This document shows, piece by piece, positions 45,578-60,596 of a stretch of 64,000 nucleotides of DNA. Below the pieces are notes generated by a model. That model made no database searches, had not been told where the DNA came from, and saw nothing but the letters and a program-made list of their open reading frames with translations. Every line of letters starts with the position of its first letter. The stretch's first letter is position 1. Origin of the DNA: Nitrososphaerota archaeon (GTDB lineage Archaea > Thermoproteota > EX4484-205 > JAAOZP01); contig JAAOZP010000014.1 in NCBI GenBank assembly GCA_011605725.1, positions 32,001-96,000 on the forward strand. Direction: 5' to 3'. Made by a program: the position numbers and the translations under genes.

Positions 45578-45943
45578 ATGGGTAAGAGGATGGTGATGAA
45601 TATCGCAAGGGAGAGGATAGACATACTGCTTAGGCTTGCGCTGGAAACTGCGGAATCCGACTTGAGCAGGGCTGAATCATATGCCAAGCTTGCCTGGAGG
45701 ATTGCTGAGAAATACAACCTTAGGAGGAAGACCGTGTTGAGAAGATACTTTAGATGTAGTAAGTGTAAGAGCCCAGTGATACCTGGTCGTAGCCTTAAGA
45801 TTAGGGTTTTGAAAGACAAGGGAGTGGGGCTCATCTGTTTGAAGTGTGGAAGCGTCAAGCTTATTCCAGTTTTCCGCGAAAAAGATAAGAATCCTGGTGT
45901 TGAAGCATATTCGACCAGGTTTGAGTCTAGAGCTTACGGCTGA
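45578..45943 (+). CDS. rnp4: RNase P protein Rpp21
   Basis: IARERI..L, CSKC...IPG...CLKCG. Confidence 0.9.
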   Translation: MGKRMVMNIARERIDILLRLALETAESDLSRAESYAKLAWRIAEKYNLRRKTVLRRYFRCSKCKSPVIPGRSLKIRVLKDKGVGLICLKCGSVKLIPVFREKDKNPGVEAYSTRFESRAYG

Positions 45944-45944
45944 A

Positions 45945-46538
45945 GTGGAGCGTTTCACGAAAGCATTCATATTGCTGTTCGTCATACTCGATTCTGTTGG
46001 AAACATTCCTGTTTTCCACGCTTTTCTAGAGTCCTTCTCAAGCGAGAGGAGGAGGAAGATAATAAGGGAGTCTGTCGTCGCCGCGACAGCAGTGCTAGTG
46101 TTCTTCGCCATGCTTGGAAACATAATGTTCAGCTTCCTCGGGATAAGGCTATATGACTTCTACGTTGCTTCAGGAATGGTTCTTGTAGCAATATCCTTAA
46201 AATACATACTTGTGGGTGAGGAGAGCGAGCTGAGAGGGGAAAAGGCTGAGGAGATCTCTGTCTTCCCCCTGGCTACGCCGCTTCTCGCAGGTCCGGGAAG
46301 TATTTCCACAGTCATAATAATATCTAACCCTCCATATAACATTCTGATTTGCATACTAGTAATACTGCTGAACGCGGTTTTAGCATACGTGATCCTTGTT
46401 AACGGTGAGAGGATTATGGCGAGCATAGGCAGAACTCCTTCGAAGCTTATTGCGAAAATATTCAACTTGATAATAGTGGCTTTCGGGATAGTTATGATTA
46501 GAAACGGTTTAGAAGGATTTCTACAGTTACCCGGGTAG
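45945..46538 (+). CDS. MarC-family membrane protein (start uncertain)
   Basis: D.VGNIP, PLATPLLAGPGSI. Confidence 0.9.
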   Translation: MERFTKAFILLFVILDSVGNIPVFHAFLESFSSERRRKIIRESVVAATAVLVFFAMLGNIMFSFLGIRLYDFYVASGMVLVAISLKYILVGEESELRGEKAEEISVFPLATPLLAGPGSISTVIIISNPPYNILICILVILLNAVLAYVILVNGERIMASIGRTPSKLIAKIFNLIIVAFGIVMIRNGLEGFLQLPG

Positions 46539-46547
46539 CTTTAGAAG

Positions 46548-46562
46548 AAAAAGTTAATATAG
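46548..46562 (+). promoter_or_regulatory. BRE/TATA promoter of the leu leader
   Basis: AAAAAGTTAATATAG; TTAATATAG also precedes the ilv leader. Confidence 0.55.
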
Positions 46563-46594
46563 TAGTGGAGCGGTCTCCGCTGAGGAGGTGTATA

Positions 46595-46675
46595 GTGCAC
46601 ATGGCCAGCAACGCCCAAAGGGGGCGAGACTACCTGCGTTGCAGAGACAGCGACACCTCTATCGGAGTCTGCTGA
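46595..46675 (+). CDS. Putative leu leader peptide, 26 aa (MHMASNAQRGRDYLRCRDSDTSIGVC)
   Basis: AGGAGGTG SD, GTG start, AxRGRD shared with the ilv leader, sole Leu at position 14. Confidence 0.7.
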   Translation: MHMASNAQRGRDYLRCRDSDTSIGVC

Positions 46676-46716
46676 AAAACAATATTGTTTTAAACCTGTT
46701 TTAGGAGGGTTTCGTA

Positions 46717-48252
46717 ATGGTTTGGAGAGGATATATTGCTGAGGCTGAAATACCTGGCAGGGTGATTCTTTTCGACACTACTTTAAGAGATGGTGAACAG
46801 ACTCCTGGAGTCGCGCTTACGCCCGAGGACAAGCTTAAGATAGCGAGACAGCTGGACTTGCTTGGAGTACCCGTATTGGAAGCAGGCTTTCCAGCAGCGT
46901 CGCGCGGCGAGGAGGAGGCTATTAAGCAGATAGCTAGAGAAGGGTTGAACGCGGAGGTCGCTGCCTTATCCAGATGCGTGAAGGAGGATGTTGAGAAGAC
47001 TGCTTCAACCGGTGCACGGAGAATACATCTTTTCATAGCAACCTCAGACATACATTTGAATAAGAAGCTGCAGATAAGCAGGGATGAAGCTGTATGCAGA
47101 GCGGTTGAATCCATAGACCTTGCTAAATCCTACGGTATGAAAATAGAGTTTTCAGCTGAGGATGCGACTCGGACGAGCATCGATTTCCTAGTGGAGTTTT
47201 ACAGGAGGGTTGAAGAGGCGGGAGCAAGCATAGTCGACATTCCTGATACTGTTGGTGTTGCAACACCCTTTGCTATGAGGGAGATTGTTAAGAGGGTTCG
47301 CAAAGCCCTGAGGATCCCGGTTGCAGTGCACTGTCACAACGACATGGGTCTAGCAGTTGCGAACACGCTTGCAGGCATTGAGGGCGGAGCCTCTGAGGCG
47401 CATGTAACAATTAATGGACTTGGGGAGAGAGCAGGCAACGCGAGCCTAGAGGAGGTGGCGGTTTCCCTGAAAGTATTGTATGGTGTTGAAACAGGCTTAA
47501 AGTTTAAAGAGATATACAACACTTGCAGGCTTGTCTCACTGATAACTGGCGTAGCAATACCTGTGAATAAGCCTATAGTTGGAGAAAACGCTTTCTCCCA
47601 TGAGAGCGGTATCCATACTCACGGCATACTGGCGTCTCCAGAGACTTACGAGCCTATAGACCCTGGGTTTGTTGGAGCTAGGAGAAAGCTGGTAGCTGGA
47701 AAGCACGCCGGTGTCCACGGGATTTCAGCGCAGCTTGAAGAAATGGGGTACAGGCTTAGTGAGGAGGAGTTGAAACAGGTTCTTAAAATAGTTAAGGATA
47801 TTGGCGACAAGGGTAAGAAGGTTACTGACGCGGAACTCGCCTCGATAGCTGAAAGCGTTATAGGGTACGGGGTCGGTGAGAAGGATCGCATCGAGCTTGA
47901 AGAGCTTCTGGTGGTCACTGGGTTAAACACGACGCCGACAGCAGCAATAAAGATAAGAAGGGGTGAACAGGCTTGGAGAGGAGCGGAGTTCGGAGTGGGG
48001 CCGATAGATGCTTCGATGAAGGCAGTCAGCAAGCTTCTTGGAGACCTGGTTAAGATTAAGCTTGAAAGCTTCAGGTTGGAGGCAATCACGGGAGGCACGG
48101 ATGCGCTTGCAGAAGTTACGGTCAGGGTTTCAGATGAAGAAGGGAGGAGTGTGACTGCGAAGGGATTCAGCGAGGACATTGTGCTAGCAGGGGTTTACGC
48201 GATATTAAACGGGGCTAACAGGCTTCTGCAGATTAAGAGGGCTGGTAGATGA
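46717..48252 (+). CDS. leuA: 2-isopropylmalate synthase (or citramalate synthase)
   Basis: DTTLRDGEQ, HCHND.G, GERAGN, regulatory domain GPIDA. Confidence 0.9.
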   Translation: MVWRGYIAEAEIPGRVILFDTTLRDGEQTPGVALTPEDKLKIARQLDLLGVPVLEAGFPAASRGEEEAIKQIAREGLNAEVAALSRCVKEDVEKTASTGARRIHLFIATSDIHLNKKLQISRDEAVCRAVESIDLAKSYGMKIEFSAEDATRTSIDFLVEFYRRVEEAGASIVDIPDTVGVATPFAMREIVKRVRKALRIPVAVHCHNDMGLAVANTLAGIEGGASEAHVTINGLGERAGNASLEEVAVSLKVLYGVETGLKFKEIYNTCRLVSLITGVAIPVNKPIVGENAFSHESGIHTHGILASPETYEPIDPGFVGARRKLVAGKHAGVHGISAQLEEMGYRLSEEELKQVLKIVKDIGDKGKKVTDAELASIAESVIGYGVGEKDRIELEELLVVTGLNTTPTAAIKIRRGEQAWRGAEFGVGPIDASMKAVSKLLGDLVKIKLESFRLEAITGGTDALAEVTVRVSDEEGRSVTAKGFSEDIVLAGVYAILNGANRLLQIKRAGR

Positions 48253-49514
48253 CGGGTTTAACAGCAGTACAGAAGGTGCTTTCCAGGAAAACAGGCAGGC
48301 CTCGTGTGGAACCTGGTGAAATAGTTGAGGCTAAGGTGGATTTCCTAATGTTGCACGAGGTAACTGGGCCACTGGCTGTCGAAGAGTTTGAAAAAATCTC
48401 TGGAAAAGTCTGGGACCCAAGTAGGGTGATAGTGGTTTTCGACCATGATGTTCCGCCGAGCACGATAGACTTAGCCAACCAGATGAGAAGGATGAGAAGC
48501 TTCGTTAAGAAACACGGGGTAAACAATTTTTTCGAGATAGGCAGGGGAGGTATTGCTCATCAAGTTCTCTTCGAAGAAGGCTTCGACATGCCTGGCTTCC
48601 TGATAGTCGGCGCGGACAGTCATACTTGCACAGCTGGGGCGACTGGCGCAGTTGGAATAGGGGTCGGCTCTACTGATGCTGCTGTTGTCCTAGCAACCGG
48701 AGAGATATGGTTGAGGGTTCCTGAAACACTGTTGGTTGAGGTCAAAGGCAGGCTTAGGAAAGGCGTTTTCGCGAAGGATGTTGCTTTAAGTATCGTTGGG
48801 AGAATTGGCAGCAATGGAGCAACCTATAAGGCTCTGGAGTATTCAGGTGAAACAGTAAGCATGATGTCTCTTTCTGAACGCCTTACTCTTGCAAACCTCT
48901 CCGTGGAGACTGGCGCTAAAACCGGGATTGTTCAGACAGATTCTAAAAGCATTGAGTATGCTGAGAACTCTGGAAGACGCAGCGAGCTACTGGATGTTAG
49001 GAGCGACCCCGACGCGTGCCTGGAGAAAATCGAGATTGATGTTTCAAACTTGGAGCCTGTTGTAAGCCTGCCGCATAGCGTGGATAATGTTAAGCCCGTT
49101 GCAGAAGTTGAAGGCCTTGAGATAGACCAGGCTTTCCTAGGTTCCTGCACGAACGGGAGGCTGGACGATCTTCTCGTAGCCTTCAAGATACTTAAGGGGA
49201 GAAGGGTCGCGCCGAGCGTGAGGCTGGTGGTTAGCCCGGCTTCAGTCAAGGTGTATGCGGAGGCTTTGAGAGCAGGAGTCGTCGAGGAGATTGTGCGGGC
49301 AGGAGGAATAGTGACAAGCCCAACATGTGGTCCCTGCCTCGGAATGTCGAGGGGAGTTCTTGCTGAAGGAGAGGTTGCAGTTTCAAGCAGCAACAGGAAC
49401 TTTATAGGCAGAATGGGTGATAAGAGGAGTAAAGTGTTCCTCGCTTCCCCGGCGACAGTGGTTGCGTCAGCGGTAGAGGGAAGAATAGCTGATCCAAGGA
49501 GGTTTCTGCCTTGA
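48249..49514 (+). CDS. leuC: 3-isopropylmalate dehydratase large subunit
   Basis: GADSHTC, GSCTNGR, CGPCLG, NRNF.GR. Confidence 0.92.
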   Translation: MTGLTAVQKVLSRKTGRPRVEPGEIVEAKVDFLMLHEVTGPLAVEEFEKISGKVWDPSRVIVVFDHDVPPSTIDLANQMRRMRSFVKKHGVNNFFEIGRGGIAHQVLFEEGFDMPGFLIVGADSHTCTAGATGAVGIGVGSTDAAVVLATGEIWLRVPETLLVEVKGRLRKGVFAKDVALSIVGRIGSNGATYKALEYSGETVSMMSLSERLTLANLSVETGAKTGIVQTDSKSIEYAENSGRRSELLDVRSDPDACLEKIEIDVSNLEPVVSLPHSVDNVKPVAEVEGLEIDQAFLGSCTNGRLDDLLVAFKILKGRRVAPSVRLVVSPASVKVYAEALRAGVVEEIVRAGGIVTSPTCGPCLGMSRGVLAEGEVAVSSSNRNFIGRMGDKRSKVFLASPATVVASAVEGRIADPRRFLP

Positions 49515-50008
49515 AGATACGCGGTAGGATTATTAGGCTTGGAGACAACGTGGATACTGACGTGATAATACCTGCAAGATACTTGGTGACTCACGATGCG
49601 GAGGTTCTTGCGAAACATGTTTTCGAAGACTATTATCCTGAATTCAGGGCAAAGGCTTCTGGTGGAGCGATAATAGTTGCCGGAGAGGACTTCGGGCTGG
49701 GGAGCTCAAGAGAGCATGCAGTAATAGCTTTGAAACACTCCGGTGTGAAAGCGATAGTAGCTAAGTCTTTTGCAAGAATCTTCTACAGGAATTCTATCAA
49801 CCTGGGTCTTCCCGCGCTCGTCTTAAGAAGTAATGAGGGTTTTGACAAGCTTAAGGATGGGGATGAGGCTGAGCTTGATGTCTCCAACGGGGTTTTGACG
49901 ATTATCAGAACCGGGGAGAAGTTTTCCTGCGATAAAATGCCTGAATTCATGATGAAAATAATAGAAGCAGGAGGCTTAATAAACTATTTTTTGAAGAAAC
50001 ACGGATGA
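49511..50008 (+). CDS. leuD: 3-isopropylmalate dehydratase small subunit
   Basis: DTDVIIP, FG.GSSREHA, FARIFYRN. Confidence 0.92.
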   Translation: MKIRGRIIRLGDNVDTDVIIPARYLVTHDAEVLAKHVFEDYYPEFRAKASGGAIIVAGEDFGLGSSREHAVIALKHSGVKAIVAKSFARIFYRNSINLGLPALVLRSNEGFDKLKDGDEAELDVSNGVLTIIRTGEKFSCDKMPEFMMKIIEAGGLINYFLKKHG

Positions 50009-50056: not shown

Positions 50057-50917
50057 ATGAAACTATTACTGTTGCAGCGGAGAGAAGCAGTTAGAAGGGA
50101 GGCTGTTGGCAGTTATTCCTGCGAGCAGTGTGGGCGTCCACTGAGCCCTGAATACAAGTTCTGCCCAGCCTGCGGAACCCCGCGGAGAGGAGTCTCCTAC
50201 GTTAGGAGGGTTTCAACAGGCAACCCGGCTATAGACGAGATTCTGGAGGGTGGTTTCGAAGTGGGTAAAACATATCTGCTCGCCGGGGAGGCTGGAACCG
50301 GTAAGACGATTTTCAGCTTACAATACCTCTTACACGGGGCTAAGAATAATGAGCCCGGAATATATGTTACGATAGACGAGAGGCCGGAGATGCTTGTTAG
50401 AGACGTGAGGAACTTCGGCTGGGATCTTCAGCCGCTCATAGAGACAAAGAAGCTTGCGATACTCCCGGTTAGGAGATACTTCACCTCCAAGATGTGGGGG
50501 AGGGAAATGGACACTATAGTTAACAACATAATAGAGGAGCTTGACAGGAGGAGGAGGGAGATAGGGGCTAAGAGGCTTGTCATAGATCCTATAGCCCCGT
50601 TGGTAACTACTTATTCGAACGAGGTTGCATGGGTTAGAGAATACATCAGGAGCCTCATATTCTCTATTGAGGAGAAGCTCGGTGTAACCACGGTTATAAC
50701 GTCAGAAGTCCCTACTGGGGAGAACATGATGAGCAGGTATGGTGTTGAAGAGTTTCTGGCGAGCGGCGTAATATTACTATCCCTGTCTAGAGTTGGGAAC
50801 TCCATAATAAGGACGATGTTTATAAGGAAGATGCGCTGGACTGCTGTGAACCCAACGATCTACAGGTTTGAAATAGAAAGGGGTCGTGGAATAGTTCTTA
50901 AAGAACCGTTAAGCTAA
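50057..50917 (+). CDS. KaiC/RAD55-like ATPase with N-terminal zinc ribbon
   Basis: CEQCG...FCPACG; GEAGTGKT; RLVID; RKMR.T. Confidence 0.88.
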   Translation: MKLLLLQRREAVRREAVGSYSCEQCGRPLSPEYKFCPACGTPRRGVSYVRRVSTGNPAIDEILEGGFEVGKTYLLAGEAGTGKTIFSLQYLLHGAKNNEPGIYVTIDERPEMLVRDVRNFGWDLQPLIETKKLAILPVRRYFTSKMWGREMDTIVNNIIEELDRRRREIGAKRLVIDPIAPLVTTYSNEVAWVREYIRSLIFSIEEKLGVTTVITSEVPTGENMMSRYGVEEFLASGVILLSLSRVGNSIIRTMFIRKMRWTAVNPTIYRFEIERGRGIVLKEPLS

Positions 50918-53134: not shown

Positions 53135-53218
53135 CCCTAAGCCGGATGAACCTGCAGAAACATGCTAATAAGGGTTACATGAAAAACGGTTTGAAACATT
53201 CTGAAGGCTTAAAAGCGA

Positions 53219-53305
53219 TCAGCATTTTACGGGTTTCCCTAGAGACAAGTGGTGGCGAGCTAAGATTCTACAAGGGTTGAGACGCCTCCGGTAGTCCAGA
53301 AGCAT
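53219..53305 (-). CDS. Putative argH leader peptide, 28 aa (MLLDYRRRLNPCRILARHHLSLGKPVKC)
   Basis: GGAGTGTG SD-like sequence before ATG; tandem CGG AGG CGT codons; 84 nt upstream of argH. Confidence 0.55.
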   Translation of the reverse strand: MLLDYRRRLNPCRILARHHLSLGKPVKC

Positions 53306-53412
53306 GTGAATCACACTCCACGGAAAGCCTTTCCCCCGGTTTTCTACGCGCGCAAAAAGCAGCGGGCAAAACTTAAAAGGCTCAAAAACAAGTATTTCAA
53401 GAGGAACTCGTC

Positions 53413-60402: not shown

Positions 60403-60447
60403 TTGAAACACCTCTTGCAAACGGCTTTTTGAAAACCACTGTTTTCT

Positions 60448-60531
60448 CTAGCGGAGGCTGGGTTTGCAGCGGGACTCCTGCAGTTGGTGGACGGTGTCCC
60501 GCCCCCTTGGAGCGTGAATATTATGGTACAC
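60448..60531 (-). CDS. Putative ilv leader peptide, 27 aa (MYHNIHAPRGRDTVHQLQESRCKPSLR)
   Basis: AGGAGGTG SD, GTG start, AxRGRD at the same positions as in the leu leader, Val at position 14. Confidence 0.7.
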   Translation of the reverse strand: MYHNIHAPRGRDTVHQLQESRCKPSLR

Positions 60532-60596
60532 TCAGCGCACCTCCTAAGCAGTGTGCCCATTGAGAGGCCTATATTAATCTTTCCCCCCTAAGCTGG

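Follow-up and report, generated by a model that had tools for sequence, protein, structure and literature searches.

Does the short gap in front of an archaeal leucine operon encode a device that senses the product of the operon? The question is raised by a 64,000-nt stretch of DNA from a Nitrososphaerota archaeon (GenBank assembly GCA_011605725.1, contig JAAOZP010000014.1, positions 32,001 to 96,000; hereafter the window, with positions counted from its first letter), in which a gap of 178 nt between a gene for a MarC/NAAT transporter (45846-46538) and leuA-leuC-leuD holds a leader. A preliminary description of this leader, made from its letters alone, had proposed an RNA switch that depends on ribosome position and senses Leu-tRNA at a single CTG codon within a short open reading frame (ORF). 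Comparison among genomes supports that proposal in part: the ORF is preceded by a Shine-Dalgarno (SD) sequence and is conserved together with its CTG codon, a paralogue in front of ilvB carries a Val codon in its place, and a helix that includes the leader SD (P1) is kept in all 16 relatives of the genus. The toggle of a CACCTCT sequence onto the leuA SD and two extra helices, which were parts of the same proposal, are not supported. The element appears best explained as one of a pair of related ribosome-dependent leaders in Candidatus Brockarchaeota, the one that serves the leucine operon, and on balance these leaders probably act as sensors of the supply of branched-chain aminoacyl-tRNA.

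The leader open reading frame and its product codon

Leaders were collected from the 16 genomes of the genus, giving 16 of the leuA type and 16 of the ilvB type (32 in all), and helices were aligned across 14 genomes. The relatives that bear the element are hot-spring metagenome-assembled genomes (MAGs) named Candidatus Brockarchaeota or Thermoproteota. BLAST of these relatives matched the intergenic region in 13 of the 16 genomes, and a covariance model (R1), for which the 89-nt core of the leader was used, found a match upstream of leuA in all 16. The core has a length of 89 nt in 12 of 14 genomes and is 72-88% identical to the window, a level similar to that of leuA coding DNA. The 21-nt spacer after the TATA box is only 39-81% identical among the 14 aligned genomes. 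In the distant genomes, identity falls to 39-45% in this TATA-to-SD spacer, 52-58% in the stretch after the anti-SD (the sequence complementary to the leader SD) and 50-55% at leuA third codon positions; the core is far more conserved there than these neutral proxies, which indicates that it is under selection. R1 also gave a second, weaker match in most relatives, about 13.7 kb from the leuA leader and on the opposite strand. In the window this match covers 60461-60547 of the minus strand (25 bits, E = 9e-4) and lies within the leader of ilvB (Table 1).

All 32 leaders contain an SD, an in-frame start codon 4-12 nt downstream of it and an open frame of 20-27 codons. The leader SD of the window, together with the A that precedes it, could form 8 base pairs with the 3' end of the 16S rRNA of the same genome, which ends in GGATCACCTCCT. 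The start codon has turned over among the relatives; many genomes use GTG, and a subgroup that lacks this GTG uses an ATG two codons further on. The sole indel within the ORF is one of 6 nt, which keeps the frame, and the 2 nt that the window has lost were located after the SD but ahead of the GTG at 46595, and so before either candidate start. The two alternative frames contain stop codons at many variable positions.

Eight codons after the GTG, the 32 leaders share a block encoding A-x-R-G-R-D/E-x, followed by an invariant codon. At this place, two codons after Asp, all 16 leuA leaders have CTG (Leu) and all 16 ilvB leaders have GTC (Val), and the ilvB-type leaders contain in addition an invariant CAA CTG, in which the Leu codon lies three codons past Val. 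The association of Leu with leuA and of Val with ilvB recurs in 22 more matches in archaeal genomes and 17 in metagenomes, with no third type among them. Because the two types represent two paralogous lineages, this recurrence is a measure of conservation and not of many independent events. We infer that sensing of a single codon is the best fit to the Leu/Val contrast of the paralogues, and the predicted translation of a leader that reads one product codon forms the best supported half of the model.

The nucleotides of the block are themselves constrained. Three of the 15 constrained core positions vary (GCC/GCT, CGA/CGG and GAC/GAT), and all three are third codon positions (chance 10/455). 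AGG GGG CGA is the same in each of the 16 leuA leaders. Over the core as a whole, the second Arg codon is CGA or CGG, codons that account for 3% and 5% of the Arg codons of the genome, where AGG and AGA together make up 81%. The G run of the block ends 6 nt before the codon (TAC) that precedes the sensing codon and 9 nt before the sensing codon itself; an SD and its start codon are 8 nt apart in this genome.

Base pairing and the proposed switch

The probable start of the leader transcript was estimated from promoter spacing. Over the whole genome, the first start codon of a long ORF lies most often 30-32 nt from the first T of a TTWAWATA box, the spacing expected of leaderless mRNAs, and 39 nt is a second preferred distance. 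The two peaks suggest that many mRNAs are leaderless and that others have a short leader with an SD. When the 30-32-nt spacing is applied to the two leaders, transcription is predicted to start at about 46584-46586 for leuA and 60547-60544 for ilvB, placing the SD at the extreme 5' end of each transcript.

The preliminary description had paired CACCTCT, near the end of the leader ORF, with the leader SD, and this helix (P1) was borne out. It joins GGAGGTGT to ACACCTCT (46653-46660) over 8 base pairs (bp), with a duplex energy of -13.4 kcal/mol versus a mean of -7.4 for shuffled partners (p about 0.003). Across the 14 genomes, 99% of the alignment cells in P1 are paired, and shifting the partner strand by 1-3 columns lowers this share to 40-65%. 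The hairpin that had been drawn over the Arg-Gly-Arg codons (CGCCC/GGGCG; P2) is also present, with 94% of cells paired and all changes one-sided, placing C or U opposite G. Two T4 tracts were found where T tracts had been noted, at 46688-46691 and 46699-46702. The remaining helices of the earlier proposal are not general. An extension of P1 by CTCCG (46575-46579) and CGGAG (46663-46667) occurs in this genome only, and its CTCCG lies upstream of the predicted transcription start; the pairing of AAACC (46692-46696) with GGTTT (46708-46712) around the leuA SD is lost in several relatives.

A fold that contains P1 has the minimum free energy (MFE) in 8 of the 16 leuA leaders, and the CTG sensing codon is unpaired in the consensus fold. 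All ilvB-type leaders have a CCTC(C/T) equivalent of the anti-SD, within the ORF or past its stop. Because the sequence is inside the ORF in some leaders and after the stop in others, the anti-SD would act as an RNA feature and not as a peptide feature. Only in the distant ilvB leaders does it fit both SDs equally well, over 7 bp, and there the two states are 0.3-2.6 kcal/mol apart.

These features are consistent with the following sequence of events. The transcript would begin approximately 30 nt past the TATA box, at a perfect SD, where a ribosome would load and translate an ORF of 24-27 codons. Eight codons in, the ribosome would meet the frozen A-x-R-G-R-D-x block, which is G-rich and SD-like, includes a rare CGA or CGG Arg codon and is overlapped by a small hairpin; a fixed distance further on it would reach one end-product codon, CTG (Leu) in the leuACD leader or GTC (Val) in that of ilvBNCD, where a Leu codon follows at a distance of three codons. 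If the matching charged tRNA were scarce, the ribosome would dwell at this codon. The anti-SD, some 35-50 nt beyond the sensing codon and close to the ORF stop, could pair with the 5'-terminal leader SD in P1; it would pair more poorly with the SD at the head of the biosynthetic genes. In the preferred version of the output, free-running translation would keep the leader SD occupied and P1 open, so that the anti-SD would be free to mask the gene SD, and a stalled ribosome would allow P1 to persist, leaving the gene SD accessible. Because the anti-SD is the sole downstream feature common to all members, this SD/anti-SD output is retained as the leading idea, with low confidence in its details.

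Termination was considered as another possible output. A scan for bacterial-type terminators and promoters gave nothing, and there were no terminator-like sites in 46400-46800. Archaeal termination is described as relying on U tracts and the factor aCPSF1/FttA (PMC8716108, PMC11616081). Termination could possibly take place at the T tracts; in its simple versions, however, this scheme would answer starvation in the wrong direction, and T tracts are missing from three ilvB leaders of the distant group (L040-L042).

Points against the switch and alternative readings

Several observations weigh against a ribosome-dependent sensor with this output, and they concern both its codons and its helices. 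The leader contains one regulatory codon, unlike the codon runs of classical attenuators. A count of synonymous and non-synonymous variants in the three frames did not single out the frame of the ORF, although this count is non-discriminating because the changes are too few. The third positions of the AGG, GGG, CGR and Leu or Val codons do not differ even when families are compared that have nearly saturated neutral sites. These frozen synonymous sites and the rare Arg codon indicate that selection on the peptide alone is insufficient for the core block, and that constraint at the RNA or codon level acts on the core as well. The small hairpin, a need for a particular codon or tRNA, and the SD-like G run are possible causes.

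The core block also bears on an alternative in which the product of translation, and not the supply of tRNA, halts the ribosome. Nascent A-x-R-G-R-D-x would be an arrest peptide, stalling the ribosome by itself or under abundant Leu, Val or another ligand and so blocking downstream expression; TnaC, the fungal arginine attenuator peptide and SpeFL are arrest peptides that stall in the ligand-responsive manner. A peptide-like motif is conserved in both paralogues (A-x-R-G-R-D/E, 32 leaders) and in a second family (R-G-R-Y), and the peptide on either side of it is free to vary, a pattern also seen in known arrest peptides. The polarity is also favorable, as a stall that turns expression off suits simple models in which the anti-SD stays on the gene SD, or T-tract termination occurs, if the ribosome falls short of the ORF end. 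In a MAG from another family of the order (described below), the region of the ilvB SD has a possible pairing partner in a TTCTCTG located at the ORF stop. However, the distance from motif to stop varies (8-15 residues), which makes arrest with a fixed geometry at the stop unlikely; a function of the peptide alone does not require frozen synonymous sites; and this reading offers no reason for a Leu versus a Val codon at a fixed position. An arrest peptide is considered unlikely.

The helices of the ribosome-dependent switch raise further objections. No pair in P1 or P2 shows a compensatory (two-sided) change in the leader alignments; both helices are thus compatible with the sequences yet unproven by covariation. 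The leader region as a whole folds no better than shuffled sequences (z = -0.35). The partial pairing of CACCTCT with the leuA SD that had been described earlier does exist (5 bp, -8 to -11 kcal/mol) but is weak; anti-SD/gene SD pairing in the closer ilvB group amounts to -3 to -6 kcal/mol, and the anti-SD pairing of ilvB-type leaders is individually non-significant (p 0.06-0.24). The preferred output also demands that P1 form around the stalled ribosome. When all leaders were folded with a partition function at 37 and 60 °C, with the ribosome footprint constrained at the start, at the sensing codon (codon 14 in the window) or at the stop, there was no consistent change at the gene SD. The mean unpaired probability of the leuA SD at 37 °C, in what is a thermodynamic model only, was 0.43 in the free RNA, 0.38 with an initiating ribosome, 0.44 with a stalled ribosome and 0.46 with a ribosome at the stop. 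Individual genomes shifted in opposing directions, and the ilvB type behaved likewise. In the window, the P1 fold has an energy of -37.9 kcal/mol, the fold with the anti-SD on the leuA SD -33.5 (4.4 worse) and the MFE fold -39.5; from one leuA leader to another, the gap between these two forced pairings varies between -9 and +11 kcal/mol.

The same helices could belong to a cis-regulatory RNA that acts without translation. In such a riboswitch- or T-box-like element, P1 would close a domain containing P2 and a conserved single strand, and CUG or GUC would be the specifier for a tRNA or ligand. This alternative is in keeping with conservation of the core at the nucleotide level (synonymous sites included), with its near-constant length and with a closing helix and internal hairpin that are compatible with all sequences, and the Leu/Val triplet contrast suits a specifier as well. 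However, it leaves unexplained the perfect SD, the turnover of start codons, the open frame and the fixed frame that joins start, core and triplet, and the MAG from another family lacks P1 and the 5' arm of P2 yet keeps the motif in frame. Covariation, as noted above, is zero. An Rfam scan of the window found no leader, T-box or other leader-region family at the gathering threshold, and at E values up to 10 the sole match was a chance one to suhB on the opposite strand. A translation-independent RNA element is judged slightly less probable than an arrest peptide.

A third alternative assigns the conserved sequences to a regulatory protein. CGCCC-N5-GGGCG (approximately +30 to +45, as DNA or RNA), or the AAAAC...GTTTT after the ORF, would be an operator or roadblock for a regulator of branched-chain amino-acid genes, and the ORF would be incidental. 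Both sequences are inverted repeats and are common to both branched-chain amino-acid operons, as a shared regulator would need, and the actinobacterial LEU element was finally suggested to be a protein site (PMC1262725). Against this, the A/U repeat is missing in distant groups and the 5' arm of the GC repeat in the MAG from another family; the SD, the start codon, the open frame and the operon-specific codon would be superfluous for an operator; and no candidate regulator gene was identified. A protein-binding site is regarded as the least probable of the three alternatives.

Related systems, distribution and neighboring genes

Leader-peptide attenuation is a textbook bacterial mechanism that needs coupled transcription and translation, and amino-acid control in archaea is, to our knowledge, otherwise ascribed to transcription factors. 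The literature searched contained no report of leader-peptide attenuation in an archaeon and returned only bacterial leader-peptide systems. Like the bacterial ribosome-mediated attenuators, exemplified by leuL, ivbL, ilvL and trpL of E. coli, the leaders described here consist of a short SD-led ORF that precedes a leu or ilv operon and contains end-product codons. In the trp leader, too, a distal segment of the RNA masks the SD once translation has passed through its first round. They differ from the E. coli leaders in containing a single CTG (leuA) or one GTC and one CTG (ilvB) in place of a codon run, in lacking a GC-rich terminator hairpin with a U tail and an Rfam leader match, and in possessing an archaeal TATA promoter and a conserved A-x-R-G-R-D block of peptide and RNA that is non-regulatory.

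Likenesses to other systems are more partial. With translational attenuators (ermC, cat) and arrest peptides (TnaC, fungal arginine attenuator peptide, SpeFL, SecM), the leaders share a short ORF, an internal motif and variable flanks, and the state of translation would set access to the downstream SD. The ermC and cat leaders and the arrest peptides sense drugs or free metabolites and have motifs that differ from A-x-R-G-R-D, and we know of no archaeal example of ermC/cat-type leaders or of the named arrest peptides. A single triplet that matches the pathway amino acid (CUG for leu, GUC for ilv) is reminiscent of T-box leaders, from which the elements are distinguished by the absence of a T-box Rfam match, T-box sequence and stem I architecture and by the position of the triplet, in frame within an SD-led ORF. 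In the LEU element of Actinobacteria (Seliverstov et al. 2005; PMC1262725), consecutive Leu codons themselves form the pairing with the leuA SD that makes up the base of a pseudoknot. That element resembles the present one in having a leader ORF before leuA and RNA pairing that involves an SD (PMC1262725), whereas the present leader lacks a Leu run, has its anti-SD as a separate sequence whose main partner is the leader's own SD, and has its Leu codon in no conserved helix.

A stronger form of the ribosome-dependent reading holds that the leader is the first archaeal ribosome-sensing attenuator and is of a new design, in which the SD-like, G-rich R-G-R-D block would hold the ribosome so that one hungry codon suffices and the helix between the SD and a mimic of the 16S rRNA end would serve as output; this is put forward tentatively, as a doubtful proposal. 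If ribosome-dependent sensing were true, a paralogous pair of leaders with a built-in Leu versus Val control could show archaeal ribosomes serving as amino-acid sensors and could reveal a relay of the signal that uses no bacterial-type terminator. The system also bears on whether one codon and a pausing block can stand in for a codon run.

The element is confined to uncultured hot-spring archaea and is, from its sequence, a lineage-restricted and conserved candidate for a leader-peptide regulator, with the paralogue as a natural control. R1 found no leuA-leader match in nine genomes from other families of the order. With respect to ilvB, one MAG from these other families has a leader, two have the genes inside other operons, and the others are without the genes. 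The first of these (named Bathyarchaeota archaeon in GenBank) has an upstream ORF before ilvB that begins 2-4 nt past the predicted transcription start and retains R-G-R-Y-P-V-x-Q-I in frame but has neither an SD nor the hairpin's 5' arm. No leader precedes leuA in this MAG. The ilvB gene of this MAG (L082, G017:C76:25575-26971) consists of two matching pieces split by an in-frame TAG, which a sequencing error, a pseudogene or recoding could explain.

No third member of the family was found in this genome, which holds just the leuA and ilvB copies, in the collection of genome contigs, where bacterial matches were at about the chance expectation, or in the metagenomes. The motif was also not seen upstream of ilvB among the 80 distant loci listed, which span many phyla, Brockarchaeota not among them. 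An Arg-rich ORF of 28 codons before argH (53135-53385, minus strand), with three consecutive Arg codons, was considered as a third member and rejected. It lies within a stretch of approximately 110 nt that is exclusive to this genome, and the region upstream of argH in eight relatives is shorter, different and devoid of an Arg-rich ORF; being genome-specific, it does not belong to a conserved system.

Table 1. Features of the leuA and ilvB leaders and of the genes around them (window positions; minus-strand features are read from the higher to the lower number)
Feature	Position	Strand	Remarks
MarC/NAAT transporter gene	45846-46538		Upstream neighbor of the leuA leader
Promoter element (B recognition element/TATA), AAAGTTAATATAG	46550-46562	+	Invariant in 14/14 aligned genomes
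Leader SD, GGAGGTG	46584-46590	+	5' strand of helix P1; invariant in 32/32 leaders
Leader ORF (predicted)	46595-46675	+	GTG 46595 or ATG 46601, stop TGA 46673-46675; 24-26 codons
Hairpin P2, CGCCC-AAAGG-GGGCG	46612-46626	+	Arms 46612-46616 / 46622-46626; over the Ala-x-Arg-Gly-Arg codons
Conserved core codons, A-x-R-G-R-D-x-L	46613-46636	+	Invariant Leu codon CTG 46634-46636, codon 14 from GTG
Anti-SD, ACACCTCT	46653-46660	+	Contains CACCTCT 46654-46660; 3' strand of P1, mimic of the 16S rRNA 3' end
A/U-rich hairpin, AAAACA / TGTTTT	46676-46691	+	Closer relatives only, missing from the more distant group
Two T4 tracts	46688-46691, 46699-46702	+	Absent in distant relatives
leuA SD, AGGAGGG	46703-46709	+	Conserved as TTTTAGGAGG, 8 nt upstream of ATG (46717)
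leuA	46717-48252	+	NCBIfam NF002085, 653 bits
leuC	48249-49514	+	NCBIfam NF001614, 567 bits
leuD	49511-50008	+	NCBIfam TIGR02087, 195 bits
ilvB leader	60403-60582	-	Same layout as the leuA leader
ilvB leader TATA	60582-60569	-
ilvB leader SD	60544-60538	-
ilvB leader ORF (predicted)	60531-60448	-
ilvB leader Val codon, GTC	60492-60490	-
ilvB leader anti-SD, GCCTCC	60458-60453	-
ilvB SD	60415-60409	-
ilvB	60402-58729	-	NCBIfam TIGR00118, 683 bits
ilvN	58720-58232	-	NF008864, 51 bits (cut-off of this model 119)
ilvC	58187-57204	-	NF004017, 471 bits
ilvD	57196-55562	-	NF002068, 745 bits

As the score for NF008864 is under the cut-off, ilvN is assigned from a weak match combined with its place after ilvB. 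The leuA-leuC-leuD operon contains no leuB, and a gene for a KaiC-family ATPase (50057-50917, plus strand) follows leuD after 49 nt on the same strand. The leuA and ilvB genes open with the same seven bases, ATGGTTT (Met-Val; 46717-46723 and, on the minus strand, 60402-60396), which may be due to chance or to their being part of a duplicated unit. An A/U-rich inverted repeat lies directly past each leader stop, AACAATATTGTT before leuA (46679-46690) and GAAAAC-AGTG-GTTTTC before ilvB (60445-60430, minus strand). Both repeats are common to the closer relatives and absent in distant groups, and each might form a weak hairpin or be bound by a protein.

The tRNA genes called by ARAGORN, 21 in number, form too incomplete an inventory to assign the tRNAs that read CTG and GTC. 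A partial Rfam tRNA match at 2016-2069 on the minus strand (35 bits, model positions 9-63), not called by ARAGORN, may represent an intron-containing or split tRNA gene.

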